From a virus (Duplodnaviria > Caudoviricetes): DNA of 62,327 nucleotides. The DNA lies in the IMG/VR virus record IMGVR_UViG_3300042542_002992, positions 1-62,327 of that record; one strand, written 5' to 3'. Under the pieces are notes generated by a model. The model had not been told where the DNA came from, made no database searches, and saw nothing but the letters and a program-made list of their open reading frames with translations. A program made the translations under genes and the position numbers. Below are positions 24,510 through 61,980 of the stretch, piece by piece. Position 1 is the first letter of the stretch. Each line of letters begins with the position of its first letter.

Positions 24510-24535
24510 TATTTATTAGAAATAGAGTTACGATA
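24510..24535 (+). promoter_or_regulatory. late-type TATTTAT motif plus leader, near-duplicate of 59071-59096
   Basis: TATTTATTAGAAATAGAGTTACGATA vs TATTTATTATAAATGGAGTTACGATA, 24/26 identical. Confidence 0.55.
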
Positions 24536-27675: not shown

Positions 27676-27679
27676 GATT

Positions 27680-28306: not shown

Positions 28307-28358
28307 ACGAACGTTTTGGAGACGAAACGTGTGTCATAAAGAAAATTTTTAATTTCCT

Positions 28359-31823: not shown

Positions 31824-31836
31824 TTTTGTATATTAG
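31805..31836 (+). promoter_or_regulatory. Bacteroidota-type promoter inside glycan island
   Basis: TTTG(31805)-N20-TATATTAG(31829). Confidence 0.65.
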
Positions 31837-31851
31837 TAAAAATAAATCGTT

Positions 31852-33626: not shown

Positions 33627-33627
33627 T

Positions 33628-36333: not shown

Positions 36334-37286
36334 AAATAGCATTTTTTAGTGAGATGGGGTTTGATGGTAAGATTCCAAGAACTCATACAAACATGAGAGT
36401 TGAGTTTGCTCAAATGTGTGCACTTGGAGCTGACCACTATCCTATGTTAAAAATCCAACAAGTGCAACAAGAATATGATGTTGCTGTACTTTTAGTTGGT
36501 AAGTCCACGAATTTCAGAAATCAAATAGCAAATATTGATGTTGTAAATGAAGCACGCAGATTTGCTAAGAAAGTCCTTTGGATGCAGGAAGGTCCTCATT
36601 GGGTTTTCCAAGATATGCCATTGGAACACCAGTTCTGGCACTACAATGTTCTTGCATCTGCTGATGGATTATTGACTGAAAATAAAACCGACATACCTTA
36701 CTTTAAAGGAATTATGGGTGATGATAAGTGGGTTGTGGATATTCCAAGTTTGATGATTACCGACCTTGTTAATGATGTAGAGTATGCTAATAAAGAAGAA
36801 AAAATAATTATCGGTGGTAATTTTTGCCGATGGTATGGTGGGTTTGATTCATATATTTGTGCCAGAGATTTGGAGATTCCAATTTGGGCGCCATCTATGG
36901 GTAGAAAGATTGAAAACGAAGACCACATTGAGGATATGAACTACTTTCCTTACATGGAGTGGGTCGATTGGATTAAAACTCTATCGTCTTTTAAATACGC
37001 AATCCATTTAATGCCGACCACAGGCGCTGGAACATTTCCAATGAATTGTGCATACTTGGGAATCCCGTGTGTTGCATACAATGATTTGGATACTCAAATT
37101 AATTTACATCCAGACTTATCAGTAAATCCAGGTGATGTTCAGAGTGCTAGAAAACTTTTGAACAAATTAAAGAATGACCCTATCTTTTATAAAGATATGA
37201 GTGATAAAAGTAGATATTTATATAAACAATACCATTCAGAAGAATCGTTTCTATCTGATATTAAAAAGAAGTTACAAACATTATGA
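36330..37286 (+). CDS. GT-B glycosyltransferase
   Basis: KIAFFSE, WYGG, AGTF..NCAYLG.PC. Confidence 0.65.
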   Translation: MKIAFFSEMGFDGKIPRTHTNMRVEFAQMCALGADHYPMLKIQQVQQEYDVAVLLVGKSTNFRNQIANIDVVNEARRFAKKVLWMQEGPHWVFQDMPLEHQFWHYNVLASADGLLTENKTDIPYFKGIMGDDKWVVDIPSLMITDLVNDVEYANKEEKIIIGGNFCRWYGGFDSYICARDLEIPIWAPSMGRKIENEDHIEDMNYFPYMEWVDWIKTLSSFKYAIHLMPTTGAGTFPMNCAYLGIPCVAYNDLDTQINLHPDLSVNPGDVQSARKLLNKLKNDPIFYKDMSDKSRYLYKQYHSEESFLSDIKKKLQTL

Positions 37287-38470
37287 TTACAAAAAGCGAT
37301 ATTAGTTTTATCCAACCATCAAGAAACAATTTAAAATACTTAAAATGGTCTTACGATGCTATTCGTAAAAATGCCGGAAGTGAACCTCACATTTGTGTAG
37401 CGGATGATTTTAGTAATGATGGTACTTGGGAGTGGTGTCAAGAAATGATGTCAACCGACCCAAACTTTCACGCAATCCGTAACGAAGGACCTACTCGATT
37501 GGGGCATACTATTTTATATGACCGATTAATCAATGAGGTTGCACCTACAAAGATTGTTGGTATTTATCACGCTGATATGTGGTTGTGTCCTGGTGCTCTT
37601 GAGTCGGTGTTAGAACACATCAAACCTATGACTGTGGTATCATTAACTCGTATTGAACCTGACTTACACCCACCGGGACCGGAGAAGGTATTGATTAACA
37701 ATGCCCCAACCGAGCCGGAGAATTTTGATGAAGATTGGTTCATGGAATTCTTTAACAATTACTTACCAACGGTTAAGAACAAAATAACTGATGGTATATT
37801 TGCTCCTTGGTTTTTATTCAAAGAAGATTTTCAATCTATCGGCGGCCATGACCCATTGTATGCTCCGCAATCAAAAGAGGATTCAGATATCTTTAATCGA
37901 TTTTTACTAAATGGATATCAGTTTGTTCAAACTTGGGAAGGGTGTGTGTTTCATTTGACTTGTAGGGGTTCACGATTTAATCCAACATTGACTACTCCAG
38001 GTACCAACTCCAATGAGTGGGAAGCTCAGAATATTCGTTCAAGTCGTAACTTTATTCGTAAGTGGGGGCATTTTGTAAAACACGATGTTCAATTAAAACC
38101 AATCATTCCTCACAAATATGATATCGAATTTGAAGTAGCAAATTGTAATCTCAAGATGATTGAAGCATTAGAACCTTGGTGTGATAGAATGACACTTGAT
38201 TGTTCTCAAGAAGTTATTAATAGTTACATTCAAAGTGAACAACCAAACACTAAATTTGATTTATCAAAGAAGTTCAATACGAATGATAAATCAGACATTA
38301 TAGTACAATTTGACGCACAACGAATGACAAATCAGTCATTTCAGTTTATCCAAAATATGTCAGAAATATTTGATTTCAATCAATTTGAGATTGGTCAGTA
38401 CGAATTCGACATATTTAATATTAAGGTAAATCGTATAAAACACTACGAAGACGCCCTTATAAAATTATGA
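37283..38470 (+). CDS. GT2 glycosyltransferase
   Basis: DDFSNDGT, HADM, GGHD, EDSD..NR, H...R.SR. Confidence 0.88.
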   Translation: MITKSDISFIQPSRNNLKYLKWSYDAIRKNAGSEPHICVADDFSNDGTWEWCQEMMSTDPNFHAIRNEGPTRLGHTILYDRLINEVAPTKIVGIYHADMWLCPGALESVLEHIKPMTVVSLTRIEPDLHPPGPEKVLINNAPTEPENFDEDWFMEFFNNYLPTVKNKITDGIFAPWFLFKEDFQSIGGHDPLYAPQSKEDSDIFNRFLLNGYQFVQTWEGCVFHLTCRGSRFNPTLTTPGTNSNEWEAQNIRSSRNFIRKWGHFVKHDVQLKPIIPHKYDIEFEVANCNLKMIEALEPWCDRMTLDCSQEVINSYIQSEQPNTKFDLSKKFNTNDKSDIIVQFDAQRMTNQSFQFIQNMSEIFDFNQFEIGQYEFDIFNIKVNRIKHYEDALIKL

Positions 38471-38712
38471 GATACTTTATATTACTACCAGATGATACCG
38501 AGAAAGATGTTGATTATTCAACCAACATATTAGGAGAGGTATCGTTTAAGAATTTCTGGGCTGACCATGGTTTTGAAATACTTATCCGATTGGTAGAAAA
38601 GTATCCTGATACGCTGGAAACAGTGATTATCAAAGATGAAAAAAACAAATCTTATTCCGTAGAAGAATTCTTGGACGTTATTAAAAAGCTGAAAGTAATC
38701 CGACATGGCTAA
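38467..38712 (+). CDS. hypothetical protein
   Basis: 81 aa, ATGA-coupled to upstream gene. Confidence 0.65.
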   Translation: MRYFILLPDDTEKDVDYSTNILGEVSFKNFWADHGFEILIRLVEKYPDTLETVIIKDEKNKSYSVEEFLDVIKKLKVIRHG

Positions 38713-38717
38713 ACTTA

Positions 38718-38948
38718 ATGTTAATCAATTCGATTTTAGTGAAATTCAACACGCTGGTTATGAAAAATTTAAACCCAAAAAGAAAAATAAAGTTAAAGAA
38801 GACATTCTCGAATCATCGGGGAAGTCTGATAGAGGGGGAAAAAGTGACTCTCATATCAGTAAACGAACTAAAGCAAGAAGGTAAGGTAGAAGACCCATTC
38901 GGAGTAGAGTGGGTCTTACCTTTGGACTTTTTGGATACATCCTTATAG
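38718..38948 (+). CDS. hypothetical protein (SH3-like barrel possible)
   Basis: ORF fills the gap; alternative start at 38760. Confidence 0.5.
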   Translation: MLINSILVKFNTLVMKNLNPKRKIKLKKTFSNHRGSLIEGEKVTLISVNELKQEGKVEDPFGVEWVLPLDFLDTSL

Positions 38949-38949
38949 T

Positions 38950-38956
38950 TATTTAT
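38950..38956 (+). promoter_or_regulatory. late-type TATTTAT motif before lysis cassette
   Basis: Recurrent intergenic motif. Confidence 0.5.
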
Positions 38957-39014
38957 ATAGATAGTAGATGGAAGTGGTGACATATTGTGACCACATATAT
39001 TTTAGAGGAGTACG

Positions 39015-39203
39015 ATGGATACAACTTCAGTACAACCAACCGCCCCTGATTTTGGGGTATTCAATCAGTTAGGTGATTATGGTCCGTTAGGATTGGCAGC
39101 ACTTGCTCTTGGATATGTGGCTTGGATGTTTTTAAAGCGCCAGTGGGCTGAAAAAGACAGATTAAAAGAAGAATTAAATAACACAAAAAAAAATAAGAAG
39201 TAA
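39015..39203 (+). CDS. single-TM holin-like protein A
   Basis: One TM segment, basic tail, GAGGAG upstream; paralogous to next gene. Confidence 0.6.
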   Translation: MDTTSVQPTAPDFGVFNQLGDYGPLGLAALALGYVAWMFLKRQWAEKDRLKEELNNTKKNKK

Positions 39204-39448
39204 TGTCATTTGGTCCCTTTGAAGTATTAACTCAATATGGTGTATTGGGTTTTGCTGTTTTAGGATTGGGTTACTTGTGTTGGGTATTTCTAAACAAACT
39301 CATGCAAAGTGAAGAAGACTATCGAAAACGATTAGAGCAATTAGAAGGTGAGTATCGTGACGAGTTAGAATCTAAACTGACAGAGAGTACCGAAAGTTCT
39401 AAAAGCTTAAAAGAAATTGTTCTTATGTTTTTGAGTGGTAAAAAATGA
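39203..39448 (+). CDS. single-TM holin-like protein B (BhlA-like)
   Basis: LTQYGVLGFAV TM followed by coiled coil. Confidence 0.6.
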   Translation: MSFGPFEVLTQYGVLGFAVLGLGYLCWVFLNKLMQSEEDYRKRLEQLEGEYRDELESKLTESTESSKSLKEIVLMFLSGKK

Positions 39449-39822
39449 AAAAAAAGATACTCATAGTAATAATTTCATTTGTAGCATTGGTTTGTTTACA
39501 AATATTTTCAAGTGGGCATGGTCACGTTGTCGTGGTGGAAGAAAATGTACAACTGACAGATGAAAATAAACAATTAACAACTGCCAATAAATCATTGCGT
39601 AGTACTGTTTCTAAATTAGAAACTAAAAACGAAGAACTTGTTGAAGAGAAACAAAATCTCGAAACGATGGTTTCCGAGGTGATTGGTGATTTAGATAGTA
39701 CAAGAGCTGTTGTTAAAAATATCAAGAAAGAGTTGAAAGATGAGAGGACTGTTAATAGCATTAATAATGGTCGGGAATTTGAGTTTCAGCCAATCAAGTT
39801 ACCCGATTCAGAAGGTAATTGA
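39445..39822 (+). CDS. TM + coiled-coil protein, i-spanin-like
   Basis: N-terminal TM, long heptad region, 3' end overlapped by next gene. Confidence 0.5.
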   Translation: MKKKILIVIISFVALVCLQIFSSGHGHVVVVEENVQLTDENKQLTTANKSLRSTVSKLETKNEELVEEKQNLETMVSEVIGDLDSTRAVVKNIKKELKDERTVNSINNGREFEFQPIKLPDSEGN

Positions 39823-40309
39823 TGGCGATACTTTTGTTATTCTGACAAAGGGGCAAGCTGATACAATTAATAGTATTTTTGAAAGTCAGAAAGCCAAAAT
39901 TGCAAAATACAAAGAGGAAACTAAAATCAAAGATTCTATAATCTCAATACGAGATACGTTATTGGTGTATTATACAAATAGAATCATAGAATATCATACA
40001 ATCATAGATAAAGAGATTGAACGTGTTGATAGACTTGATACTTTATCAGATTGGTTATACAAACGTGCGGTAGAAGGCGCTTGGTTATATTATTCGTATA
40101 AGAACCAATCTGTTGTTGCTGTGGATTTATCAAAATATGTAGTTCGTAAAGACGACTATACCGGTGACTTACTGTTTTATAGAATGACCGAGGATTGTAA
40201 TCCAAATGATAAACATGATAAAGAACCACCTTTGTATTGGCAAAATGATATAGCATTACCATCTCGACCTAAATTGAATATATTGAAATTAAAAGAAACC
40301 GAAAGGTAA
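39740..40309 (+). CDS. secreted protein overlapping the spanin-like gene
   Basis: Signal peptide MRGLLIALIMVGNLSFS|Q; 83 nt overlap in the +1 frame. Confidence 0.6.
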   Translation: MRGLLIALIMVGNLSFSQSSYPIQKVIDGDTFVILTKGQADTINSIFESQKAKIAKYKEETKIKDSIISIRDTLLVYYTNRIIEYHTIIDKEIERVDRLDTLSDWLYKRAVEGAWLYYSYKNQSVVAVDLSKYVVRKDDYTGDLLFYRMTEDCNPNDKHDKEPPLYWQNDIALPSRPKLNILKLKETER

Positions 40310-40356
40310 GAATTCAACATATTTATTATAAATTATTTATAAAATGGGAGTTGTCG

Positions 40357-40968
40357 ATGAGTTTAAAATCGTTACAAACTAAAATTGGTGTAGCAGCAGA
40401 TGGTGCTTTTGGACCTGGAACTTTAAAAGCTGCTATGGCTTATTACAAATTTACACCAGAAAGAGCCGCTCACTTCTTTGCTCAAACATCACACGAAACT
40501 GGTGGATTCAAAGCATTTTCTGAAAACCTAAATTATTCAGCACAAGGATTGCAAGGAATCTTTGGAAAGTATTTTCCTGGAAACTTGGAAGAATCTTATG
40601 CTCGTCAACCTGAAAAAATTGCCAATAGAGTTTATGCTGATAGGATGGGTAATGGAAATGAAGCATCTGGTGATGGTTGGAAATATAGAGGTCGGGGTGC
40701 TCTACAATTAACAGGTAAGGCTAACTATGAAGCATTTTCAAAACACTTGGCTAAGCCCGAAATAATTACAAATCCGGATTTAGTAGCAAATGAACTTGCT
40801 TTTGAATCAGCAATGTTTTTCTTTGATAGAAATAAATTGTGGGATATTTGTGATAAAGGTGTCAACAAAGATACCATTCTTGCATTAACAAAAAGAATCA
40901 ATGGTGGAACTCATGGGTTAGCCGACCGTGAGGAAAAAACACTTAAATATTATGGTTGGTTAAAATAA
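40357..40968 (+). CDS. GH19 endolysin with short peptidoglycan-binding N-terminus
   Basis: ADG.FGPGT; FFAQTSHETGGF...ENLNYS; DGWKYRGRGALQLTG; TKRINGG..GL.DR. Confidence 0.92.
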   Translation: MSLKSLQTKIGVAADGAFGPGTLKAAMAYYKFTPERAAHFFAQTSHETGGFKAFSENLNYSAQGLQGIFGKYFPGNLEESYARQPEKIANRVYADRMGNGNEASGDGWKYRGRGALQLTGKANYEAFSKHLAKPEIITNPDLVANELAFESAMFFFDRNKLWDICDKGVNKDTILALTKRINGGTHGLADREEKTLKYYGWLK

Positions 40969-40981
40969 GGAGATTACTAAC

Positions 40982-41581
40982 ATGGCAAAGTACACAAAAG
41001 AACAAGTTGAAAAAGCTGTAAAAGCTAAAGGTTATGTATGGTTTGAAGACGCTGCTAACAAAGGTTTTGATTTAAATATCGTTGGTATCAGAAACTCTGC
41101 TACCGGAACTAAAGTTACCAATGTATTTGATGATGCTATTTCAGTATCATACAAAGAAAATGGTGTTTGGATTTACAAGGAGTGGGTAAACACTACTGAT
41201 CCTGGAACTAAAGGTGTTAAAGAATATCACAACGCTGCAGGAGTTGCTCGTTTGGTTCCCGGTCAATATCGTGGGTCTCATACGTTAGGTCTTCACCAAG
41301 GTAAGTACGAAGCTTTGAAACAACAAAAGCCGGTAAAAGTATATCGTGATGCTAATCGTGATATGAACTATGATGAAACTAAAATCCAAGAAGGTGTATT
41401 TGGTATTAACATTCACAAGGCTGGTGCTGATTCTACTTATGTAGAGAACTGGTCTGAAGGATGTCAAGTATTCAAAAAAGCAGCTGACTTTGAAGAGTTC
41501 ATGGCTATCTGTAGAAAAGCTGGTGCTATTCATGGTAAGTCATTTACTTATACATTGATTGAATCAAAAGATATCGTTTAA
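40982..41581 (+). CDS. L,D-transpeptidase-fold peptidoglycan enzyme
   Basis: GINIH...WSEGCQ (H-x-S-x-G-C catalytic motif of the YkuD-like fold). Confidence 0.7.
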   Translation: MAKYTKEQVEKAVKAKGYVWFEDAANKGFDLNIVGIRNSATGTKVTNVFDDAISVSYKENGVWIYKEWVNTTDPGTKGVKEYHNAAGVARLVPGQYRGSHTLGLHQGKYEALKQQKPVKVYRDANRDMNYDETKIQEGVFGINIHKAGADSTYVENWSEGCQVFKKAADFEEFMAICRKAGAIHGKSFTYTLIESKDIV

Positions 41582-41604
41582 TATTTGATAAGATACCTAT
41601 AAAC

Positions 41605-41638
41605 AAACCCTCCGAAAATCACGGAGGGTTTCTTTTTA
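41605..41638 (+). terminator. rho-independent terminator
   Basis: AAACCCTCCG-7 nt loop-CGGAGGGTTT perfect 10 bp stem followed by CTTTTT. Confidence 0.85.
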
Positions 41639-41646
41639 TATGGGTA

Positions 41647-41653
41647 TATTTAT
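41647..41653 (+). promoter_or_regulatory. late-type TATTTAT motif before envelope operon
   Basis: Immediately after terminator, 52 nt before the AGGAG-led ATG. Confidence 0.5.
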
Positions 41654-41705
41654 ATTGGAATTAGTTTTGAATTTGTTATGAGCCGTTAATAAAGGAGAAA
41701 CAACT

Positions 41706-41954
41706 ATGGCATTTTGGGACATTTTCAAAGACAAAAATGATTTTAACGAGAAAACTATCGTAGGTTTTCTATCATTCACAGTAATGGCTATTTTCGCCGG
41801 AGCTGACATCGTAACTGGTATTATGGGTAATCAACTCATCATTAGCGACACGATTTTTAATTCGTTCGTAATGATTACCTTGGGTGCTTTTGGTATCGCT
41901 GAAGCTGGTAAGATTTTCGGTGGTAAAAAGAACAACGAAGAATCAGAGGGATAA
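41706..41954 (+). CDS. small two-TM membrane protein
   Basis: Two hydrophobic segments; AGGAG upstream. Confidence 0.7.
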   Translation: MAFWDIFKDKNDFNEKTIVGFLSFTVMAIFAGADIVTGIMGNQLIISDTIFNSFVMITLGAFGIAEAGKIFGGKKNNEESEG

Positions 41955-41958
41955 TTTC

Positions 41959-43860
41959 ATGAAAAAATTACTCGTATTGTTAACTACAATATGGGTGAGT
42001 GTGTCAGCGTTTGGGCAGAATGGTAAGAACGAAGTTCTCCCTGCCCCCGCTTCGAGCTCTCCATATTTCTTGATTGATACAACGTTTGTTCAAGGTTCAA
42101 AACTTGAAGATACAACTGTTGTTTATGTTCACTTTAACAATCCAACATCAAATAAAATCACCGGTATTCAGGTTAGATTCTTTTATGATAATGTTAACTT
42201 CAAAACTCCGATTGTAAAGTGGGGTCCGGTTGCTACAGCAGTATCGTCAAAGTATGGTGCTTACTATTCATCTTCAGATTGGGTGAACGTGAACTTAATT
42301 TATACCGGAAACTCATCTACATTCGGATGGTCTAATGGTGCTATATTCATGGTAAAGTTACCACATAAATCAACCTTTGACCCTGCTACTGTAGATTCTT
42401 TGATGGTGACCGGTACTACTACATACAATAACCTTGCTACCACAAGTGCCGGTATTGACGTTAGTTTAGGTATGTTTTCATATGGTGGTGCTTTCTTACA
42501 ACCTACTTTGAAATTCCCATTCATTGTTAAAAACGTTCAGAACGGAGCTACAAAAGGAATTACCGCTAAATACCACTACAAAAAGAAGGCAGCTTCAACT
42601 TGGTCTGCTGGAACTTCATTTAGGACCGATTCTACCGGTAAAGCTATTATTGAAATCCCATACGACACATCATACTACAATGTTAAGTTGACTATTGCTA
42701 CTGATTCATTAAAAGATGGTAGTGCTATTTCTATTGTAGACGCATATAGATTGGCTGATATTGCAGTACAATCCGATACCGCAACTTCATACGAATATCA
42801 AGAAGGTGATATCAACCGCAGTGGTACGTTAACAACATCTGACGCATTCTTGGTATTTAATCGTTTAGCAAAAATGGATACTACTTGGAATGTTCTTGTA
42901 TCGGGTGAACACAACGTTAAATTATTAAGAAAAACTGAATATGATTCTATCGTTGCTACTCCATCTACATTCTTAACATCAAAAGTTGGTGTATACACAA
43001 TCGACAAATCTATCAATGGTTTGGATTCATTAAAATATCATTCTTACGTTTTGGGTGATGTAACTTCTACTGGTTATAATACCACATCATTCTTGGTAGC
43101 TAAAATTGCTCAAGGTGGAAGTGGTACACAATATGTTCTTGACCAACAAAGAATGATTCAACACATCGATGATTCAGTTCAGTTTGTGATTCCTAAACTA
43201 AACGTATCAGGTGATAACACCGCTACCATTCCTGTAACCTTGGTTACTCATGGTAACTCTATTGGTGCTGCACAAATTGGTCTTGAGTTTGATACAAATA
43301 TCTTTGAATTCGAATCATTGGATATGGGTGAGACTATGAGTCGTTGGACATCATTCCTTGCTAATCAAGATGGTAAGATTTTGTGGGGTGGTCATGAATC
43401 TCAAATGGACCCTGCTCTTGTAACTGGCACAACTAACGTATTTACTTTCAAGTTTAGAATCAAATCTACAAACTGGGAAGAAAGTCCTATTAGAGTATTC
43501 TCAAAGGCTGCTGGTGATGAGACTGCAAGTGATTTAAATATTATTAGAACTCCTGTAGATGCTACTGTTGTCTATAGAAGAGGTAAGAGTGAATTGTTGG
43601 ACGAGTTAGTAGATGGATTTAGAACATTCCCTAACCCAGCCACCGATTATATCTTGGTTGATTACTACATGGCTGAACAACACAAATTGTCAAGTGGATT
43701 ATTCACACTTGATGGTCAGTTGTTACAACATAACGAGGTTATCAATCAGGGTGGTGTTACAAGCACCAAATATGATTTGACAAAATTACCTACCGGTGTG
43801 TATGTGTTAATGATGTCAACTGATACAAAAACCAAATTTTACAAAATCGTTAAATATTAA
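41959..43860 (+). CDS. T9SS type A sorting-domain protein with cohesin-like and dockerin-like domains
   Basis: Signal peptide ..SAFG|Q; cohesin-like ITGIQVRFFYD and IGAAQIGLEFD; dockerin-like GDINRSGTLTTSDA; CTD FPNPATD...LPTGVYVL...KFYKIVKY. Confidence 0.85.
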   Translation: MKKLLVLLTTIWVSVSAFGQNGKNEVLPAPASSSPYFLIDTTFVQGSKLEDTTVVYVHFNNPTSNKITGIQVRFFYDNVNFKTPIVKWGPVATAVSSKYGAYYSSSDWVNVNLIYTGNSSTFGWSNGAIFMVKLPHKSTFDPATVDSLMVTGTTTYNNLATTSAGIDVSLGMFSYGGAFLQPTLKFPFIVKNVQNGATKGITAKYHYKKKAASTWSAGTSFRTDSTGKAIIEIPYDTSYYNVKLTIATDSLKDGSAISIVDAYRLADIAVQSDTATSYEYQEGDINRSGTLTTSDAFLVFNRLAKMDTTWNVLVSGEHNVKLLRKTEYDSIVATPSTFLTSKVGVYTIDKSINGLDSLKYHSYVLGDVTSTGYNTTSFLVAKIAQGGSGTQYVLDQQRMIQHIDDSVQFVIPKLNVSGDNTATIPVTLVTHGNSIGAAQIGLEFDTNIFEFESLDMGETMSRWTSFLANQDGKILWGGHESQMDPALVTGTTNVFTFKFRIKSTNWEESPIRVFSKAAGDETASDLNIIRTPVDATVVYRRGKSELLDELVDGFRTFPNPATDYILVDYYMAEQHKLSSGLFTLDGQLLQHNEVINQGGVTSTKYDLTKLPTGVYVLMMSTDTKTKFYKIVKY

Positions 43861-43873
43861 AAAAGGATTCGAA

Positions 43874-44278
43874 ATGAGTGAAGAAGTAAAAGAAGGAATG
43901 TCTAGCATCACCAAAACAGTGATTGGTGCTGTTACTACAATTGTAACTGTAGTTTCCGGTTATGTTGTTACAAATGTTGAGAAAATATTTGGTACTGATG
44001 AAAAAGAAGAGAAAACCGAACAAGTATCACAACAGGGTGGTGCTCAAGGTCAATCTGCTACTCCAGCGCCAGTTGTAATCAACATGACAAACAATAATAC
44101 ACAACAACAAACAAATTCCAATGGTGGTGGTAGAACTATCATTAAGGAAACTGTTCGTGAAGTTCCCGCTAACCAACCTGCAGCTGCTACTCCAGCACCA
44201 GAACCTAAAAAGGAAACTGTTGCTGAAAGAATGGCAAGATTGAAAGCCGAAAAAGCTGCGGCCGGAGAAGGAAAATAA
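43874..44278 (+). CDS. membrane-anchored low-complexity protein
   Basis: N-terminal TM, then Q/N/P/A-rich disordered tail. Confidence 0.7.
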   Translation: MSEEVKEGMSSITKTVIGAVTTIVTVVSGYVVTNVEKIFGTDEKEEKTEQVSQQGGAQGQSATPAPVVINMTNNNTQQQTNSNGGGRTIIKETVREVPANQPAAATPAPEPKKETVAERMARLKAEKAAAGEGK

Positions 44279-44281
44279 CCT

Positions 44282-45022
44282 ATGGAAAATCGTAAAGATA
44301 ATTTCATATCAACATTGTTTAGTGTTGTTGGTATTATAGTAATGATTGTCGGATTCGCTCTAATTTCGTCTGCTATAACTGGATGTAAATCTACAATATC
44401 TACTCAACAATATCAAGCTGAATTTGAAAAGGCTGCTCCTTTGGAAACATTACCACCATACACTGGTGAAAAACAAGTGGTTCAACTTGCTACTTTGAAT
44501 GTAAATAAAGAATTGTGGGAATCTTTTCCTGAACTTCGTGAGAAGAGACTTGGAATGGGTGTTTCGAATAGAATTATTGAAAACTTCGAAACCACAAATA
44601 GATTTATTTACGCTGAAGAAAAAGAAGCTATTGTAAATCAAATGTTGGATGCTTGGGAGAAAGATGCACAAGGTCTTGGTGATGGTAAAACTAAAATCAA
44701 GATGGAAGGTATCGCTCTACCAAAATTCATAGTGTATGCTGAAATATATGACTTTTCAGTTTCTTATGCTGAAAAATATGACAAGGGTAAATTACAAAAG
44801 ACAAACACAACAATTATCGGTATTCAAATCAGAATGGTGAATGTTGACAATTCACAATACATCGTAGCCTCTGGTCAGGGTACATCCACTCAAATTGGTG
44901 AAGGTTACTTCAAAAACCCAAGTATGTCTTTTGACCAATCTACAGTCGGAATTGCTACTCAAAGAGCTTTAGAGGTTGCTACAATGAACCTTATGAAGCG
45001 AATGAGTACAAATGGCTGGTAA
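44282..45022 (+). CDS. CsgG/HfaB-family outer-membrane lipoprotein
   Basis: Lipobox ITG|C; GMGV...E..TNRF...E; AEIYDF; IQIRMVNV.N...SG.G. Confidence 0.75.
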   Translation: MENRKDNFISTLFSVVGIIVMIVGFALISSAITGCKSTISTQQYQAEFEKAAPLETLPPYTGEKQVVQLATLNVNKELWESFPELREKRLGMGVSNRIIENFETTNRFIYAEEKEAIVNQMLDAWEKDAQGLGDGKTKIKMEGIALPKFIVYAEIYDFSVSYAEKYDKGKLQKTNTTIIGIQIRMVNVDNSQYIVASGQGTSTQIGEGYFKNPSMSFDQSTVGIATQRALEVATMNLMKRMSTNGW

Positions 45023-46469
45023 ACAATTCATATTACTAACTTTATTTTTAAGTGGACTGTCCCTATATGGGCAGTCCACTTATCGTTATATAGACCCGTG
45101 TACGGGTCAACAAAAGACGATAAATTTACCACCAAATGGTACTGGCACACTTATGAACTATGCGGGTCAAACTCGTATATTTAGTTGGGCTGAACTACAA
45201 ACCGGTGCTTATGAAGCATGGGTAGCATCTATTAATGCTCAATTCCCACCGGGAGTTGACCCATGTGCCGGTCAAGGTGAAACAGTAACAAATAACTTTA
45301 ATACACAACTTGGTTCACAATCAGCAAACAATGTGGCTTCTATAACCGGCATTGTGAGTATGGCAGCGTCCATGGGTAGTTCAATGTCAGGTGCAGCTTC
45401 TACCGCAGGTGGTGTTGGTAGTTCAATGTCAGGTGGTTCTTCAAGTGGGGGCTCTAACTCCAACGATAATGGTGAGGGTGGTGAATCTGGCGAAGGTGGG
45501 TCTAACAATTCCAATAATAATAGTGGGTCTAAACCACCAAGTGGTGGTAGTAGTGGTAGTGGTGGTAGTGGTGGTTCGGGAGGCTCGGGTGGCAGCGGAG
45601 GCTCCGGTGGTGGTTCTACTGGTGGCTCTGGTGGAAGTGGTGGTGGTTCTACCGGCAGTTCTGAAGGTCAACCACAAGGACAACCTCAAGGTGAAAACAC
45701 ATCGGAGACTACTACAAGTGAGGGTGGTGGCACGAGTCAAACAAATGCGTCTGCTACGGGAGGTGAATCTGAATCCGATAATGGTGGGGGTGGTTCTTCC
45801 GGTGGTAACAAATCTAAATCAAAACAAGAAAAGGTTGGACGTGGTGCATTAATTGGTGCTGGTGATATTGTTATTATTAGAAATTCGGAAGACATAAAAG
45901 AAACCGGTTCTGATAACTTTAAGATAAACGTATCAATGACTCATTTGAATACTAAACAAACTTTTATTAAGGGTATAAACGTAAACTATCAGACTGGTGA
46001 AAATGTTACAAACGTAACACTATATGGTTCTTTAAAAAAGAATGGGTACATGGGTATATTCTCAAACTCATTTATGACAAACTTTAAAACCGATTGGTTC
46101 AATACATCATCACTATTGAATGCTCAAAAGACCGGACCTGTAACTTGGATGTTGGGGGGTAATTTCACCTATGGTTATCTTGGTAAGGGTCAATTTAAAA
46201 ACTTTTCGTTAGTTGGTGGTGGATTTACTAATTTTAAAGGTGGAAAATCTATCGGAGCTAACGTATTATTGTTGTCAGTATATTCCCCATACATATTTTA
46301 TTATGAGGGTCAATGGTATAAGAGTGGGTTCTTGATGGTGCCTATGATTAATACCGACTTTAAAGTTACGGATAAGTTCAAATGGAGCATAAGTTTTGCA
46401 GGAGTGTATCAACTAAATCAGTCAGTTCTAAACTGGCAATTAATGACAGGTACAAAAATATTATTATGA
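45012..46469 (+). CDS. secreted protein with Gly/Ser-rich linker and C-terminal beta-barrel-like domain
   Basis: Signal ..SLYG|Q; two Cys in the N-domain; about 150 aa G/S/N linker; alternating amphipathic strands to the C-terminus. Confidence 0.7.
   Translation: MAGKQFILLTLFLSGLSLYGQSTYRYIDPCTGQQKTINLPPNGTGTLMNYAGQTRIFSWAELQTGAYEAWVASINAQFPPGVDPCAGQGETVTNNFNTQLGSQSANNVASITGIVSMAASMGSSMSGAASTAGGVGSSMSGGSSSGGSNSNDNGEGGESGEGGSNNSNNNSGSKPPSGGSSGSGGSGGSGGSGGSGGSGGGSTGGSGGSGGGSTGSSEGQPQGQPQGENTSETTTSEGGGTSQTNASATGGESESDNGGGGSSGGNKSKSKQEKVGRGALIGAGDIVIIRNSEDIKETGSDNFKINVSMTHLNTKQTFIKGINVNYQTGENVTNVTLYGSLKKNGYMGIFSNSFMTNFKTDWFNTSSLLNAQKTGPVTWMLGGNFTYGYLGKGQFKNFSLVGGGFTNFKGGKSIGANVLLLSVYSPYIFYYEGQWYKSGFLMVPMINTDFKVTDKFKWSISFAGVYQLNQSVLNWQLMTGTKILL
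45375..45812 (+). repeat. low-complexity Gly/Ser coding repeat
   Basis: GGS/GGT-rich runs; 19 bp direct repeat GGTAGTTCAATGTCAGGTG at 45375 and 45417. Confidence 0.8.
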
Positions 46470-48151
46470 AACAGTTTATTTTAACTCCAATTTTTGTACT
46501 ATTAGTACAAGTTTACGGATATTCTCAAACCTTTACTCATTCTGGCAAAGTGATGACGGATTCAAGTATTGGTATTTCAGGAGTAACTGTTAAGTTATAT
46601 GAGAGAACAACACCAACCTTAACCGGATTCACATCACAAACAAATTATAATGGTCACTCATATTATCGTTCCACATCCAGCGCAACTTGGACTGATGCAA
46701 AAGCTGCTTGTGAAAATATGGGTGGACACTTGGTAACAATCTCCAACTCGTCCGAAAACTCATTTGTATACAATACATGGCCCAGTGGTTGGATTGGGTA
46801 TTATCAAGATAAGAATGGGGCATTTTATTCAGAACCAAACGCGGGGTGGAGATGGACACAACCATACACCACATCTGGTCAAATTGCAGATTATGAAGTT
46901 CAAAATTATACAACCGGAAGTACACTTACTGATATCAAATCGAGTATAAATGCTACATTATTTAATACGCCTACGTTAACGAGTACAGGTGGAAAATACT
47001 TGACTTTTAATGGGTCAACTCAATACGCAATGACCGGTGATTTATCGGGCAAGTTTTCGGGTGGGTCTGAAGTTACAACTTTAATACTTTGGGTATATCC
47101 AACAGATGCTGGTGTGTTGGTATCTGAAAAGGGAAGTGCTTCGTTATCATCAACATGGCACGAATCAAACATAGAGATAACAAATGTTTCGGGAAGTAGT
47201 GGTACATTGAGATTGGGGTTGTGGAATACGAGTAGTGCTATATCACAAATTAGTACAACTATTGCAATCAATAGGTGGAATATGATTGCTCTCACTTACG
47301 ATGGTAGTACCATGAAAGGATATCTGAATGGGGTGTACTTTAATTCGATTACGTTCAATCGTGATGCTCCATATAATAATAGTAATGGATTGTATTATGC
47401 TTTATTCTCATCAGAGAGTACAAACATGGGTGATGGTACATATGCTGCTGGTAGGTTGGGTGATTTCCAAGTATACAACACAGCACTAACCGCTGATGAG
47501 ATTGATAGAAATTATATGTCAACCGCTTGGAGATTTGGCGTCTATCCATATTCAAACTGGAATGGGGGAGAGCCCAACAATGCAGGTAGTGAGGATTACA
47601 TACAATTTGTGTCCGGTGGTAGGTGGAACGATTTACCAAATAATTCCTTACCTTACGTTTTAGAATTTGATTATATTGTTACTACAAGTTCGTGGTCATT
47701 ACTGACATCCACAACCACAAATTCAAGTGGTGCTTATTCGTTTAGTGTGTCTACGAATCCATCCAAAGAATATTATATAGAAGTAGTAACCCCAACGGTT
47801 TCAACAAACATATCAACAACCGACTTGATTGGTATTGGCGATGTTTCTCTTCAAAAACTACCTACGAAATCATACCACTATCATAAGTTTGACATAAATC
47901 TTGATTCTAAAATAACAATATCAGATATGCAGTATATAATGGATATTATAAATGGTACTCGGTCATTTACCAAAACCACACTATTGTTTACCTCAAGTCA
48001 ATGGTCAAGTTTATCAAGTGGTACTTCTAATTTAAAATCTACGATTCCAGGAATCACTACAAATTATACATTTACACCTACATCGGGTGGAACTACAAAC
48101 TTCTATTTATTATCACCCGGTTACACAAACCAATCCAAACTAACATATTAA
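46466..48151 (+). CDS. secreted C-type lectin / LamG / dockerin-like protein
   Basis: Signal ..YGYS|Q; CTL halves YNGHSYY..TW.DAK.AC..MGGHLVTI..WIG and NW..GEPNN..ED..WND; LamG WNMIALTYDG..YLNG..YN.AL; dockerin-like DINLDSKITISD. Confidence 0.85.
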   Translation: MKQFILTPIFVLLVQVYGYSQTFTHSGKVMTDSSIGISGVTVKLYERTTPTLTGFTSQTNYNGHSYYRSTSSATWTDAKAACENMGGHLVTISNSSENSFVYNTWPSGWIGYYQDKNGAFYSEPNAGWRWTQPYTTSGQIADYEVQNYTTGSTLTDIKSSINATLFNTPTLTSTGGKYLTFNGSTQYAMTGDLSGKFSGGSEVTTLILWVYPTDAGVLVSEKGSASLSSTWHESNIEITNVSGSSGTLRLGLWNTSSAISQISTTIAINRWNMIALTYDGSTMKGYLNGVYFNSITFNRDAPYNNSNGLYYALFSSESTNMGDGTYAAGRLGDFQVYNTALTADEIDRNYMSTAWRFGVYPYSNWNGGEPNNAGSEDYIQFVSGGRWNDLPNNSLPYVLEFDYIVTTSSWSLLTSTTTNSSGAYSFSVSTNPSKEYYIEVVTPTVSTNISTTDLIGIGDVSLQKLPTKSYHYHKFDINLDSKITISDMQYIMDIINGTRSFTKTTLLFTSSQWSSLSSGTSNLKSTIPGITTNYTFTPTSGGTTNFYLLSPGYTNQSKLTY

Positions 48152-48160
48152 GGAAAGATT

Positions 48161-48559
48161 ATGAACACACTCATTTGTTACTTCGTTGCAGCAGTTACAT
48201 CATTAGCCAGTATGAATGGAGTTGATGAAAAGAAATTAACGTATGGTATCAGACAAATTACTGAAGACATGATACAGGAAAAATATCAATTATGTCCTGA
48301 TGGTAAACCAATCGAAGTAGTTATTTTATCAATCGAAGCACCAACTCAAGGATTAAGAATCGGTCCTTTTGAATTTAAATCAAAAAAAACAATAGTTAAG
48401 AGTAAGGTGACTATTGATGGTAAAGAGTATTTTGGAACTGGAACCGCTAAAACAACTGTAGGTGCTACATTATTACAATTACAAGATGATAATTTACCAT
48501 TTGAAAGAACTGAATTCAGCATTGCAGTGAAAAAATCATTGGAAGATGCTTTAAACTAA
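48161..48559 (+). CDS. small alpha/beta protein, CsgG/FlgO-like half-domain
   Basis: YGIRQITED, G.G.AK, FE.TE.S.AVKK.L parallels FDQSTVG.A..RAL of the CsgG-like ORF. Confidence 0.5.
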   Translation: MNTLICYFVAAVTSLASMNGVDEKKLTYGIRQITEDMIQEKYQLCPDGKPIEVVILSIEAPTQGLRIGPFEFKSKKTIVKSKVTIDGKEYFGTGTAKTTVGATLLQLQDDNLPFERTEFSIAVKKSLEDALN

Positions 48560-48566
48560 TACTTAT
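48560..48566 (+). promoter_or_regulatory. late-type TACTTAT motif
   Basis: Variant of the recurrent motif, 4 nt before ATG. Confidence 0.4.
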
Positions 48567-48570
48567 TATT

Positions 48571-49398
48571 ATGAAGAAAGATATCCAAATCAATGAGTGT
48601 ATTGTCGTTGGTAAACGAGTAGGAGATACACTTGTCATGGCTAAAAACCGAGACAGAGCTTACAATCCAGAATTAGAGATTGTTCACGAGCTAGTTGATG
48701 GTGTTGAAGTAGCATATCTTCGTGATATGGTTACCGATTGGTCAGAGGGTATAAACGAATACGGAATTGGTATTCTTAATACAGCCCTAATGGTTGGGTA
48801 TGATGAAAACGAAAAGAAGATTGTAAAGAAGGGTGGTAAACCCTCAAAAGATGGTGCTAGGATTAGAAAAGCATTAACAAAGACTACAATCGCTGATGCT
48901 GTTACAAGTGTGGTAAAAGTAGATGGTGGTGTAAAAGGACATACCTTGGTATCGAATCCACAAACTGCTGTTTCGATTGAGATGACATCAAAACACAATC
49001 CAAAAATAGAAATCAGAGATATTAACAATTCCAATTTTGTCAGAACAAATCATGGATATGATTATCCTGATGCTGGTTATACGAAGGGACCTGACTACCT
49101 TTCTTCAAAGATGAGAAAGATGTCTGCTGAAAAAGTCATAGAGCCGGTTAAGGATGACCCGATTGGTATATTAAAGAATTTAAGAAAACAGTTATATAAG
49201 CAAGACAGTCCATTGAATATGAGACGTGATACTCCTAAAATGAGTACATCATCACAACTCATGTTGAATTTGACTGATAGAGTTTTGACATTACATTATT
49301 TTAAATCAAAAGTGGAAAAGTTCAATGGGGTGGTAAATAGACTGCCCGAAAACTATGTTCCGAAAATTAAAATTGAGGTTGAAGAGATTGACCTCTAA
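48571..49398 (+). CDS. Ntn-hydrolase (C45/choloylglycine hydrolase-like) with 9 aa propeptide
   Basis: INE|CIVVG...AKNRDR, EGINE.GI, RTNH. Confidence 0.75.
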   Translation: MKKDIQINECIVVGKRVGDTLVMAKNRDRAYNPELEIVHELVDGVEVAYLRDMVTDWSEGINEYGIGILNTALMVGYDENEKKIVKKGGKPSKDGARIRKALTKTTIADAVTSVVKVDGGVKGHTLVSNPQTAVSIEMTSKHNPKIEIRDINNSNFVRTNHGYDYPDAGYTKGPDYLSSKMRKMSAEKVIEPVKDDPIGILKNLRKQLYKQDSPLNMRRDTPKMSTSSQLMLNLTDRVLTLHYFKSKVEKFNGVVNRLPENYVPKIKIEVEEIDL

Positions 49399-49413
49399 TT
49401 AGGAGATTCGAAA

Positions 49414-49554
49414 ATGGCAAAACCAAAAGCTTCGACAATTAACGTTATCGAAAAAAAAGAAATTAGTAGACCTGGTATTCACGCTAAAACCAAAACGTCT
49501 AAAAACAAAAATTCAAAGAATTACAAAAAACCATATCGTGGTCAGGGTAGATAA
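49414..49554 (+). CDS. 46 aa basic protein (not in ORF track)
   Basis: AGGAG at 49401; MAKPK...KNYKKPYRGQGR*. Confidence 0.75.
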   Translation: MAKPKASTINVIEKKEISRPGIHAKTKTSKNKNSKNYKKPYRGQGR

Positions 49555-49555
49555 G

Positions 49556-49678
49556 ATGGCAACTTCTCAAAAGAAAAGAATATCCGGTGTTAAAGGTAAG
49601 AGTAGAAAGTCCCAACTAAAATTCCAGAAACGAATGGAAGAGAATAATCGTATATTGAAATCACTTCAAGAAAAATAA
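49556..49678 (+). CDS. 40 aa basic protein (not in ORF track)
   Basis: MATSQKKRISGVKGKSRKSQLKFQKRMEENNRILKSLQEK*, starts 1 nt after the previous stop. Confidence 0.65.
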   Translation: MATSQKKRISGVKGKSRKSQLKFQKRMEENNRILKSLQEK

Positions 49679-49683
49679 TTTTA

Positions 49684-49690
49684 TATTTAT
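49684..49690 (+). promoter_or_regulatory. late-type TATTTAT motif
   Basis: 5 nt before ATG at 49696. Confidence 0.45.
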
Positions 49691-49695
49691 ATCAT

Positions 49696-51024
49696 ATGGC
49701 ACTAAAAGTTACTAAACGGCAAATACAAAGACAGGCGATTGATGCTATCAACAATCCGCCTAAAGCTACTGATAAGGTCCGTGTTAGTAAAGATAACCAA
49801 GTTGAAAAACAAAAAATGGTTCATGACTTGATTCCATTTTTAATGATGTTATATAAAAAACACATGGATGCCGAAATCACCGAATCTCAATTAAATGAAG
49901 GTCCAAAGGCCGGAATCTACAAGGGGTTTGTGAAAATATCAAATCAAAAAGTTCCTGTAGAAGTAGAATTGTATGGTGTTGATAATAAGAAGCGTATGTA
50001 TCTCACTCGTATATTACACGCACCAAAACAACATGGTTCTATTTTAAGAGTTGGTAATATTCTACCAATCCCAGCAAGATTGTTTACAGGACCAGGTGGT
50101 GGTTGGGTTAGAGTAAATACCAAAGGTCAATTTGAAAATACAAATGAAGACCTGCGTAATTGGTTTGGTAAAGGTAAAACTGGCTCAAACGATGGTGGTG
50201 GTTGGGATAGATATGGAACTGATGGTCAGAAATTGGGTAAGTGTGGTGATGGTGATGATGGCGATGCATATGCGGCTTGTTTATCCAAAGAAAAGGCTGC
50301 TAAACTTGGACCTGAAGGTAGAGCCGCTTTTGTAAGAAGAAAACGAGCTGACCAAAAGAAGGCAGGTGATGCCAAAAAGGGTGGTGAACAAAAGAAGGGT
50401 CAAAAACCTACGTTCTCAAAAACAGGTGCTAGTGAAAGTATCAAAGAAACCATTAAAAAAATTGATGGTAAATATGTAGTATATCCAAAATCGGGTGGTG
50501 ATAGATTGGGAACTCATGATACATATGAGGATGCTCTAAATCAATTACAGGCAATTGAAGCTAGTAAAGCTCGTAACGAGGATTGGAGTCAGAAATATAA
50601 ACGCTCTATAGATTGTAACAATCCAAAAGGATTCTCTCAAAAAGCACATTGTCAAGGTAGAAAGAAAAACGAATCTACAATCAATGAAATCCCAATGGAT
50701 GATTTGAAAGATGTGGATAGGGTTGCTGATAAGTTTTTAAATCCGGTTGATGTTGTAATCACCGACAAACATTTCTTTGATAGATTGAATGACCCTCGGA
50801 ATGGTAAAGAGATTTCACAAGCCGAATTGATTGGGTTTTTTAAAAGATTATCAAAGTACAAGAAACAATTCATGGAATTCCTTGAGAAGTACGAACAAAT
50901 GGTAGCTTTTGATAATAGAACAAACATCAATATTCCATTCATGAAGCAAGCTAACAAAGCTATTGCTAAAACCATCATGAGAAAAAAAGATTTTAAATCA
51001 TCGACTCCAAAGTTGGAAATATAA
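49696..51024 (+). CDS. modular head-packaged polyprotein-like protein
   Basis: Distinct short modules separated by LNE, TNE, IKE, RNE, INE sites. Confidence 0.6.
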   Translation: MALKVTKRQIQRQAIDAINNPPKATDKVRVSKDNQVEKQKMVHDLIPFLMMLYKKHMDAEITESQLNEGPKAGIYKGFVKISNQKVPVEVELYGVDNKKRMYLTRILHAPKQHGSILRVGNILPIPARLFTGPGGGWVRVNTKGQFENTNEDLRNWFGKGKTGSNDGGGWDRYGTDGQKLGKCGDGDDGDAYAACLSKEKAAKLGPEGRAAFVRRKRADQKKAGDAKKGGEQKKGQKPTFSKTGASESIKETIKKIDGKYVVYPKSGGDRLGTHDTYEDALNQLQAIEASKARNEDWSQKYKRSIDCNNPKGFSQKAHCQGRKKNESTINEIPMDDLKDVDRVADKFLNPVDVVITDKHFFDRLNDPRNGKEISQAELIGFFKRLSKYKKQFMEFLEKYEQMVAFDNRTNINIPFMKQANKAIAKTIMRKKDFKSSTPKLEI

Positions 51025-51043
51025 ACTAAATTTCGTATATTTG
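51012..51043 (+). promoter_or_regulatory. Bacteroidota-type promoter
   Basis: GTTG(51012)-N20-TATATTTG(51036). Confidence 0.6.
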
Positions 51044-51045
51044 TA

Positions 51046-51804
51046 ATGAATCTAAAAAAGCTCATATTAGAAGGAATGTACGATAAACTCACAGGTGAGA
51101 TTAACAAGGCTGTCTTTATTACTATGAAGAACGCCATGAAGGGGTCGGGTACTCAAGAATCACCCAAGAAGTATAAGGGTTATGAAGTTCGTAAAGACCC
51201 AATGCCACTTACCGATATGCAAACGTTATTCAATAATGAAGATAGAACTTTGTATGTAGGTGAGTTTTCAGATTCAGTATCGGGCGTTGATGTTGAAGTA
51301 CATTTAAAGTTTGCTGTTACTGAAGATGGTGTTGAAGTTGGTAAATTTTTTATAGATGGTCACGCTGAAGCTGACTCTGATTATCCATCAATCGAAGTAA
51401 ACGTTGCTGTACATCCAAATGATGGTGAGAAAGTATTTTCTAAAATACAACCGGTACTTCGTGATTTAGTACGCCATGAAATAGAACACCTAACACATGG
51501 TAGAGATTCAGCTGCTGCTAAATTCTCAAAAATATTAAGAGGCGATGAGGCTATGAGAGCCAAGATTCGTCAGAACCCCGAATTGTTCTACAAATATTTC
51601 TTGCTACCAAAAGAAGTAGATGCTAATATCCATGGTCTATATTCAAAGGCAAAGACAATGAAAAAGCCATATCAAAATGTGGTTGATGATTATTTGGATT
51701 CATTGGTGGATGATGGTGTAATAACTCCACAAACTCGTAAGAAGATATACAACACATGGAAAGCCCGAATACCAAAAATTGGTGGTATTCCCAATCTCAA
51801 ATAA
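51046..51804 (+). CDS. HExxH zinc metallopeptidase-like protein
   Basis: HEIEH followed by Y...P.E.DA; N-terminal LKKLILE propeptide-like segment. Confidence 0.7.
   Translation: MNLKKLILEGMYDKLTGEINKAVFITMKNAMKGSGTQESPKKYKGYEVRKDPMPLTDMQTLFNNEDRTLYVGEFSDSVSGVDVEVHLKFAVTEDGVEVGKFFIDGHAEADSDYPSIEVNVAVHPNDGEKVFSKIQPVLRDLVRHEIEHLTHGRDSAAAKFSKILRGDEAMRAKIRQNPELFYKYFLLPKEVDANIHGLYSKAKTMKKPYQNVVDDYLDSLVDDGVITPQTRKKIYNTWKARIPKIGGIPNLK

Positions 51805-59709: not shown

Positions 59710-61980
<2,271 letters not shown>

Follow-up and report, generated by a model that had tools for sequence, protein, structure and literature searches.

The viral DNA fragment IMGVR_UViG_3300042542_002992 (Duplodnaviria; Caudoviricetes) has 62,327 bases and an estimated completeness of 34%; it was analysed over its whole length, referred to as the window. 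It is a piece of a large T4-like phage infecting a Flavobacterium-type host, from a lake. Seven tight open reading frames (ORFs), g1 to g7, lie on the plus strand at 41706-48559, with intergenic gaps of 4, 13, 3, -11, -4 and 9 nt. The genes g2 to g7 form a real, conserved and phage-specific envelope module of exported or membrane proteins. Signal peptides were called by eye and with a hydropathy scan. By this procedure, signal peptides or membrane helices are seen in g2 to g6, the N-terminus of g7 is ambiguous for a signal peptide, and all six homologues in the cultured Flavobacterium phage vB_FspM_immuto (immuto) clearly carry such a segment. An earlier note on this DNA had counted a transmembrane segment or signal peptide in six of the seven proteins.

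The gene g2 (41959-43860, plus strand) encodes a predicted secreted scaffold, recognised through Pfam, NCBIfam and its homologues. The protein comprises a signal peptide (MKKLLVLL...AFGQ), an N-domain (residues ~21-195), a beta-sandwich with dockerin-like chassis (~200-370), a cohesin (407-535) and a type-A sorting domain of the type IX secretion system (T9SS) at 557-631. Cohesin (PF00963) scored 34.9 bits (cut-off 24.1) and covers profile positions 1-135 of 139. The sorting domain matches Por_Secre_tail (PF18962; 33.5 versus 27 bits) and TIGR04183 (29 versus 23 bits). Dockerin_1 (PF00404) at residues ~250-305 stayed under its gathering score, with 14.2 versus 22.9 bits. All 24 homologues scanned carry Por_Secre_tail, and 22 carry Cohesin; a weak Dockerin_1 signal is seen in four. 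The former description of g2 as a cohesin/dockerin protein with a T9SS C-terminal domain (CTD) holds for the sorting domain and the cohesin, both above their cut-offs, but not for the sub-threshold dockerin. The middle region of g2 is homologous to the C-terminal chassis of g6. No cysteine is present in g2, and g6 has a single one. A second cohesin in the N-domain received no support, hhalign giving a probability of 6.8% over 25 columns.

The following gene, g3 (43874-44278, plus strand), encodes 134 amino acids. A single membrane helix at the N-terminus precedes an exported tail of low complexity, rich in Q/N and in Pro/Ala, with conserved short motifs. The product is probably an inner-membrane tether. 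Searches of Pfam, PHROGs and NCBIfam yielded no match for g3, g5 or g7.

The gene g4 (44282-45022, plus strand) encodes a putative outer-membrane lipoprotein, assigned to the CsgG family by profile, homologues and fold. Alone, g4 had no match in Pfam at E values up to 0.1. The profile of its family (44 members) matched E. coli CsgG with an E value of 2.6e-5; 20 of the 44 homologues match Pfam CsgG (PF03783; best 1.9e-25) and nine match Pfam LpoB. The AlphaFold2 (AF2) model reached a predicted local distance difference test score (pLDDT) of 86.3 and a predicted TM-score (pTM) of 0.74, with long hairpins as in membrane-inserted CsgG. The top ten Foldseek matches were all CsgG chains, with E values from 4e-8 (6l7a_A) to 3.9e-7 and TM scores of ~0.44-0.49. 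Language-model neighbours were CsgG clusters, too (0.94). A lipobox, ITGC (Cys35), follows a hydrophobic segment. Its GC is kept in the alignment consensus, and the Cys is missing in the immuto homologue. The claim of a CsgG-like lipoprotein at this position was thus confirmed by profile, homologues, fold and lipobox. Matches to the CsgE, CsgF or CsgA families were not found among g1 to g7 in Pfam and NCBIfam. The last gene of the module, g7 (48161-48559, plus strand; 132 amino acids), possibly represents a CsgG/LpoB-like fold stripped down to its core, with no membrane hairpins. A comparison with the g4 family by hhalign gave a probability of 74% and an E value of 2.8e-5 over 117 columns. The g7 profile matched nothing below E 0.42 among solved structures, and all 30 nearest atlas clusters are viral hypotheticals without a family. 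The proposed CsgG-likeness of this small protein is therefore weakly indicated by the hhalign result and receives no backing from solved structures or atlas families.

The gene g5 (45012-46469, plus strand) encodes a stalked protein modelled as an outer-membrane barrel on the basis of AF2, Foldseek and alignment. A signal peptide is followed by a small N-domain with conserved C30 and C85, a helix, a disordered glycine/serine (G/S) linker of ~150 amino acids and the C-terminal 12-strand barrel. In the AF2 model, the 12 strands extend over residues 279-484 with a pLDDT of 77-88, and the helix reaches only 52-61. The best structural comparison was obtained with the NalP translocator (Z 23.9, root-mean-square deviation 2.8, 226 residues aligned), besides EstA (Z 22.4), EspP (21.5), KdgM (17.9) and FapF (17.0). 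Neither g5 nor its barrel alone matched an autotransporter beta-domain in Pfam or NCBIfam at E values up to 1. As modelled, g5 is a 12-strand outer-membrane barrel most resembling autotransporter translocators, and its description as a G/S-linker barrel protein was upheld. The GC content climbs slightly at 44-46 kb, to 0.407, which is attributed to the codons of this linker.

The gene g6 (46466-48151, plus strand) encodes a predicted secreted C-type lectin, into which a LamG domain is nested, and a chassis of beta-sandwich and dockerin-like parts, according to Pfam and alignment. Lectin_C (PF00059) matches residues 72-129 with 33.9 bits against a cut-off of 22.6, and Laminin_G_3 scored 58.3 bits, likewise above its cut-off. 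The LamG domain (183-346) is inserted in the lectin domain, which resumes at ~360 and contains EPN at 369-371 and WND at 386-388. This nesting was revealed by an uninterrupted form of 329 amino acids in the related locus L005 (Lectin_C, 63.4 bits). EPN and WND are the calcium/sugar-site motifs of C-type lectins. With these motifs, the g6 domain is classified as a lectin domain for which sugar binding is predicted; EPN would point to ligands of the mannose/GlcNAc type. Residues 405-561 form the chassis of 157 residues, a beta-sandwich with an EF-hand-like loop, which was found in 70 proteins from 53 loci in addition to the middle of g2. Searched against solved structures, the chassis profile listed nine chains. 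Five of these are X-module-dockerins or dockerins at E values of 0.032-0.23, below the threshold; the best match was the CipA X-dockerin. Dockerin_1 was detected in eight of 25 chassis sequences at E values up to 1, the best being 0.0016.

The position of g6 between g5 and g7 is a variable slot. In 53 loci, this interval holds 76 ORFs of at least 150 amino acids, which fall into 23 clusters. The 20 representatives scanned comprised PA14 (four), Lectin_C (two), LamG, GEVED and Ig_7 (one each) and nine without a Pfam match; secreted non-specific nucleases accounted for two of the 20 and an insertion of the IS605 OrfB/TnpB type for one. The latter gene, with a Cas12f1-like TNB domain (1.2e-24), is located in L037 (11898-12827) between two module cargo genes. 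A secreted Endonuclease_NS with a signal peptide occurs within or beside the module in nine of 91 loci (L001 8253-8831, L065 9677-10261, L077 11173-11754 and others). In immuto, an Endonuclease_NS gene lies immediately upstream of the module. Endonuclease_NS may be a further exported cargo of the slot.

The module is widespread among viruses. A pattern scan yielded at least 578 viral contigs encoding a g4 relative. The best 80 of these contigs were retained, and 83 viral loci (L003-L085) were compared; the loci are the most similar and not a random sample, several are cut at an end, and distant members can be missed. At tblastn E values up to 1e-4, g4 was found in 83 of these loci, g5 in 80, g2 in 73, g6 in 63, g7 in 62 and g3 in 61. 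In 60 of the 83, the genes g2, g4, g5, g6 and g7 all occur and keep their order, and a second barrel gene is found in 11. In phage immuto, none of the six core genes is missing; the lectin gene comes first, and g2 is split in two. Between the window and L003, the ratio of nonsynonymous to synonymous substitution rates (dN/dS) was 0.04-0.10 for g2 to g5 and g7; g6 reached 0.21, its dN being 0.31. The module is under purifying selection, with g6 as the fastest-evolving gene.

In the host-family sample, these genes are rare. Among 301 genomes of the family around a Flavobacterium metagenome-assembled genome (MAG), the g5 profile was detected in two and the g4 profile in three, on small contigs, one of 2.6 kb. 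Seven matches to g4 were located on genome contigs. Two of them (L090, L091) contain the module, and five are bacterial. The bacterial relatives are paired CsgG-like genes; the large proteins next to them are unrelated and have domains of the caspase, transglutaminase-like or CarboxypepD_reg-repeat type. In the MAG contigs L086 to L089, such tandem pairs stand beside large exported proteins, either with a caspase domain, with a transglutaminase-like domain and a CHASE2-cyclase, or with CarboxypepD_reg repeats over more than 1,600 amino acids (open-ended). This bacterial CsgG-pair system appears uncharacterised. The 254-kb contig of L090 (G001:C291), binned as Bacteroidetes, encodes two family-B DNA polymerase pieces ~40 kb apart and probably represents a jumbo phage with a split polymerase. 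A UvsX-like query in genome G227 gave a match on a different contig, possibly RecA, and was uninformative.

An independent lake DNA run provided contigs over 36000-41410 (0 differences) and 41513-51090 (7 differences). The second contig spans both module borders, which argues that the region is not a chimera. Origin from a host insert or from chimeric assembly, for which only the slight GC rise ascribed above to the g5 linker might speak, can be dismissed with near certainty given these contigs, the gene order shared by a cultured phage and 60 of the 83 independent viral loci, and the restriction of the module to small contigs in two to three of 301 host-family genomes. Contigs across the borders and gene order in viral versus bacterial genomes both favour the claim of the earlier note of a phage-borne block of exported proteins. 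Two RNA libraries from two studies contained near-identical contigs over parts of the upstream endolysin genes lysA and lysB and of g1 to g5. They are a weak hint of expression only, because DNA can occur in RNA libraries. Such contigs give next to no cover of g6 and g7 (46.2-48.6 kb); they cannot show absence or level.

Upstream of the string, an intrinsic-terminator-like hairpin (41605-41631, plus strand; 10 pairs, 6 GC, loop 7, then CTTTTTAT) closes the endolysin genes. The 11-mer TATATTTATAT, which contains TATTTAT, follows at 41645-41655 on the plus strand and is a possible promoter element. Exact copies are located at 49682, 4 nt 5' of an ATG at 49696, and at 52355. A count with up to one mismatch gave eight matches, where 5.69 +/- 2.53 would be expected; as many were reached in 23 of 100 shuffles, so that a role as shared promoter has no statistical support. 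The proposed upstream border of terminator and TATTTAT motif is consequently present in both its parts, but the frequency of the motif is at chance level. A terminator scan 3' of g7 was negative, and the next gene, d1, begins 11 nt further on. Position 48559 is therefore no true downstream border, and the 11-mer next recurs only at 49682. The gene d1 (48571-49398, plus strand) encodes a cytoplasmic C45/Ntn-hydrolase-like protein (NF040521, 1.3e-8, below its cut-off). It was found only in L003 and L004 and is a lineage-specific gene outside the conserved module. Two tiny, strongly basic ORFs lie at 49415-49678 between d1 and the second TATATTTATAT copy.

The first gene of the string, g1 (41706-41954, plus strand), encodes 82 amino acids with two hydrophobic segments and is holin-like or antiholin-like. 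It follows two endolysin-like genes on the same strand, lysA (40351-40968; GH19/chitinase-like; phrog_181, 3.9e-65; Glyco_hydro_19, 2.4e-10) and lysB (40982-41581; phrog_3000, 5.8e-37; phrog_33083, 1.5e-11). The immuto protein gp79 is 47% identical to g1 (E 9e-20). Its gene stands immediately before those of gp80, a chitinase-like endolysin, and gp81, a holin; this cassette lies at 43.4-44.8 kb, and the immuto module (gp13-gp19) is located at 10.5-16.4 kb, ~27 kb away. In 18 of the 28 loci having g1, the gene lies less than 700 bp from an endolysin match. In L005 to L008, g1 adjoins the endolysin downstream of the module and is 92-96% identical to the window (96% in L005), the module genes being 38-72% identical. 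Because g1 travels with the endolysin and is so distant from the module in immuto, it is assigned by its linkage to the lysis cassette and not to the module. The formerly proposed seven-gene unit is thus reduced to the conserved core g2 to g7 within a string of seven tight ORFs.

A co-transcribed phage envelope module, in which a scaffold delivered by the T9SS holds exchangeable lectins and a CsgG-type part serves as conduit or anchor, is given about an even chance of being the right account of g2 to g7. The host T9SS would export g2 via its type-A sorting domain and place a cohesin-bearing scaffold on the cell surface. Proteins of the g6 type would dock on g2 through the common beta-sandwich and dockerin-like chassis. 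The docked proteins would bear different sugar-binding heads, such as the C-type lectin with EPN and WND, LamG, PA14 or GEVED. An outer-membrane and periplasmic part would be made by g4, g7, g5 on its flexible stalk and the tether g3. This part may either move the Sec-exported, nearly cysteine-free lectin across the outer membrane or anchor the assembly. The cysteine scarcity of g2 and g6 fits an unfolded passage, as weak evidence. Two purposes are conceivable. Binding of host-surface glycans would mask receptors, spare the progeny from loss on debris and exclude rival phages; binding of glycans on neighbouring cells or particles would capture new hosts. That infected cells display lectins is a plausible prediction. 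A more far-reaching statement, that large lytic Bacteroidota phages build a cellulosome-style outer-membrane display from a T9SS-sorted cohesin scaffold, plug-in dockerin-tagged lectins and a CsgG-type channel with an autotransporter-like barrel as conduit or anchor, is held tentatively, at somewhat less than even likelihood.

Several observations weigh against such a display. The dockerin assignment lies under every curated threshold, and the chassis contains only one canonical calcium loop (DINLDSKITISD in g6, DINRSGTLTTSD in g2), the first segment being degenerate. For both reasons, the chassis is termed dockerin-like and not counted as a formal dockerin member. The earlier label of g6 as a lectin-dockerin protein is accordingly retained for the lectin and LamG domains, which exceed their cut-offs, but not for the dockerin. 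Furthermore, g6 lacks a T9SS sorting domain, and CsgG-type channels are known for unfolded amyloid subunits only. This lectin of ~560 amino acids may therefore lack a path across the outer membrane and stay in the periplasm. In Flavobacterium, cargo with a type-A CTD can also be released instead of anchored. Residues 72-359 of g6 match phrog_8510, a "virion structural protein" (6.6e-10). Finally, an endolysin-like gene is found within 8 kb of the module in 50 of the 83 loci, upstream, downstream or on the opposite strand, and the holin-like g1 stands inside it, between g2 and g4, in eight loci. This recurrent linkage to lysis genes had gone unnoticed in the earlier note.

The lysis linkage is the basis of a competing explanation, which is considered unlikely. 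The proteins would form a lysis-linked envelope complex, with the tether g3, a ring of g4 and g7, and g5, in some loci with the second barrel, spanning the periplasm and breaching or depolarising the envelope or timing lysis; the lectin and the cohesin would be secondary. In the window, the block follows lysA, lysB and g1 in one tight gene string, PHROGs recognised no spanin near the lysis genes, and g3 and g4 resemble, in gene order and topology, an inner-membrane protein paired with an outer-membrane lipoprotein. The CsgGF of the Methylophilales phage Melnitz has been put forward as a gated lysis-timing pore (PMC9004378). Against a lysis complex, the immuto module is separated from the cassette of g1 homologue, endolysin and holin by the ~27 kb given above, and the immuto g4 is devoid of the lipobox. 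In 33 of the 83 loci, some of them end-cut, no lysis gene occurs in 8 kb. A lysis function also leaves the T9SS-sorted cohesin scaffold and the fast-evolving, swappable lectin slot unexplained.

Slightly less probable still, and doubtful, is a set of envelope-remodelling proteins staying below the surface. It would, for example, bind peptidoglycan or lipopolysaccharide precursors, or block host secretion or gliding machinery. Other phages whose receptors are T9SS-dependent surface proteins would be excluded in this way. The Sec signal of g6, unaccompanied by a sorting domain, is consistent with this location, and the CsgG/LpoB fold is also present in periplasmic regulators, in line with the nine LpoB matches among the 44 g4 homologues. 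Phage resistance of Flavobacterium by way of gliding and T9SS mutations is reported in the literature (PMC9804748). An internal location is countered by the bona fide type-A sorting domain in 24 of 24 g2 homologues, which implies that g2 crosses the outer membrane, by the long hairpins of membrane-inserted CsgG in the g4 model, and by the predicted nature of g5 as an integral outer-membrane barrel.

Virion parts, i.e. decoration or fibre proteins, are a very improbable identity of the lectin and cohesin proteins. The phrog_8510 match of g6 points in this direction, and lectin-type domains are frequent on phage fibres; however, tailed-phage virions assemble in the cytoplasm, the module proteins carry a signal peptide or membrane helix, one of them a lipobox and one a T9SS domain, and the block is surrounded by genes for replication, sugar metabolism and lysis and lies apart from structural genes.

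The remainder of the window is in agreement with its assignment to a large T4-like phage. All large ORFs are on the plus strand. PHROGs identified T4-like replication genes, namely a single-stranded DNA-binding protein, a UvsX-like recombinase, a DnaB-like helicase, a ribonucleotide reductase, a family-B DNA polymerase, a clamp and a clamp loader, as well as glycosyltransferases. The only cultured relatives recovered were Flavobacterium phages vB_FspM_immuto (160 kb), with Flavobacterium sp. LMO8 as host. A tblastn search with g4 in 50,697 phage records matched the four immuto records only. Using blastn and megablast against cultured phages, the region and its flank gave a partial match to the immuto lectin gene and nothing else.

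Further genes of the window were recorded as side observations. The DNA polymerase gene has three paralogous Mom-like DNA-modification genes at its sides (12673-13434, 13418-14212 and 17905-18516; phrog_1384, 1e-42 to 1e-54). Phages of the immuto type are cited in a preprint about 7-deazaguanine modifications of DNA. An extended run of glycosyltransferase, aminotransferase and unassigned genes at 24535-38470, upstream of the lysis genes and the module, resembles a pathway for sugars or polysaccharides carried by the phage. Just 5' of the endolysin genes, an ORF of 189 amino acids with a signal peptide (39740-40309) had no family match and is conserved in the closest loci only. A GroEL chaperonin is encoded at 59713-61320 (phrog_5725, 1.3e-162); immuto encodes GroES and GroEL, too.

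If a surface display is built, lytic phages that infect Flavobacteria abundant in fresh and marine waters would alter the infected cell's surface by a multi-protein assembly of their own. The phage would redefine the targets to which a dying cell and its debris adhere. It would represent a new class of phage surface machinery with a hot-swappable specificity slot, with a bearing on adsorption ecology, i.e. progeny loss on debris, superinfection and particle aggregation, and on the unexplained CsgG clusters in SAR11 and OM43 phages. The module could supply a natural cohesin-dockerin toolkit with exchangeable lectins. As it is present in a cultured pair, immuto and Flavobacterium sp. LMO8, the question is directly testable.

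CsgG is a nonameric channel of 36 strands, which works with CsgE, CsgF and an amyloid substrate. The g4 protein shares with E. coli CsgG (PDB 4uv3, 6l7a, 6si7) the predicted fold, the profile match, the N-terminal lipobox and the long hairpins. It differs in being below Pfam detection alone, and no gene for an amyloid subunit was recognised. The constriction loop YPASNF of E. coli aligns with FPELREKR in g4, which is charged in place of Tyr, Asn and Phe. Type Va autotransporters (NalP 1uyn, EstA 3kvn, EspP) resemble g5 in the modelled 12-strand barrel; the helix that the model places in the lumen and the N-domain before it would be further parallels. Unlike them, g5 has a "passenger" of only ~60-100 amino acids, a G/S linker of ~150 amino acids between the low-confidence helix and strand 1, and no sequence-family match; FapF and KdgM are 12-strand matches as well.

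Cohesin-dockerin assemblies, e.g. the C. thermocellum CipA X-module-dockerin with the SdbA cohesin (PDB 2b59), combine a cohesin anchor with several proteins which share a chassis and differ in their heads, as is predicted for the phage module. In contrast to cellulosome-type assemblies, the heads in the phage module are lectins instead of enzymes, and the encoding genome is that of a lytic phage. Anchoring is predicted via a T9SS sorting domain and not via surface-layer homology (SLH) domains or sortase, and the dockerin is sub-threshold with one clear calcium loop. Bacteroidota T9SS type-A cargo (TIGR04183/PF18962) is matched by g2 and 24 of 24 homologues with a domain above the cut-offs, the difference being that g2 is phage-encoded.

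Phage clusters of CsgG and CsgF ("curli", type VIII secretion) have been published for pelagimyophages of the HTVC008M group (PMC7029224) and for the Methylophilales phage Melnitz (PMC9004378). These papers offer "sibling capture" and lysis timing as ideas on their role. The earlier assertion that no comparable phage system had been described does not stand beside these clusters. A literature search yielded no paper on a module of cohesin, T9SS and lectin, judged from titles and abstracts. The published clusters and the present module are alike in forming a block in large myophages, which encodes a CsgG-family channel with small exported proteins and is absent from the host. They differ in that no CsgF or CsgE match is present here, and none of those phages was found by tblastn with g4. 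The host phylum is Bacteroidota here and Pseudomonadota there. What the present module has in addition, as predicted from its genes, is a cohesin scaffold sorted by the T9SS, lectins of the dockerin-like kind, a 12-strand barrel on a stalk and a tether in the membrane.

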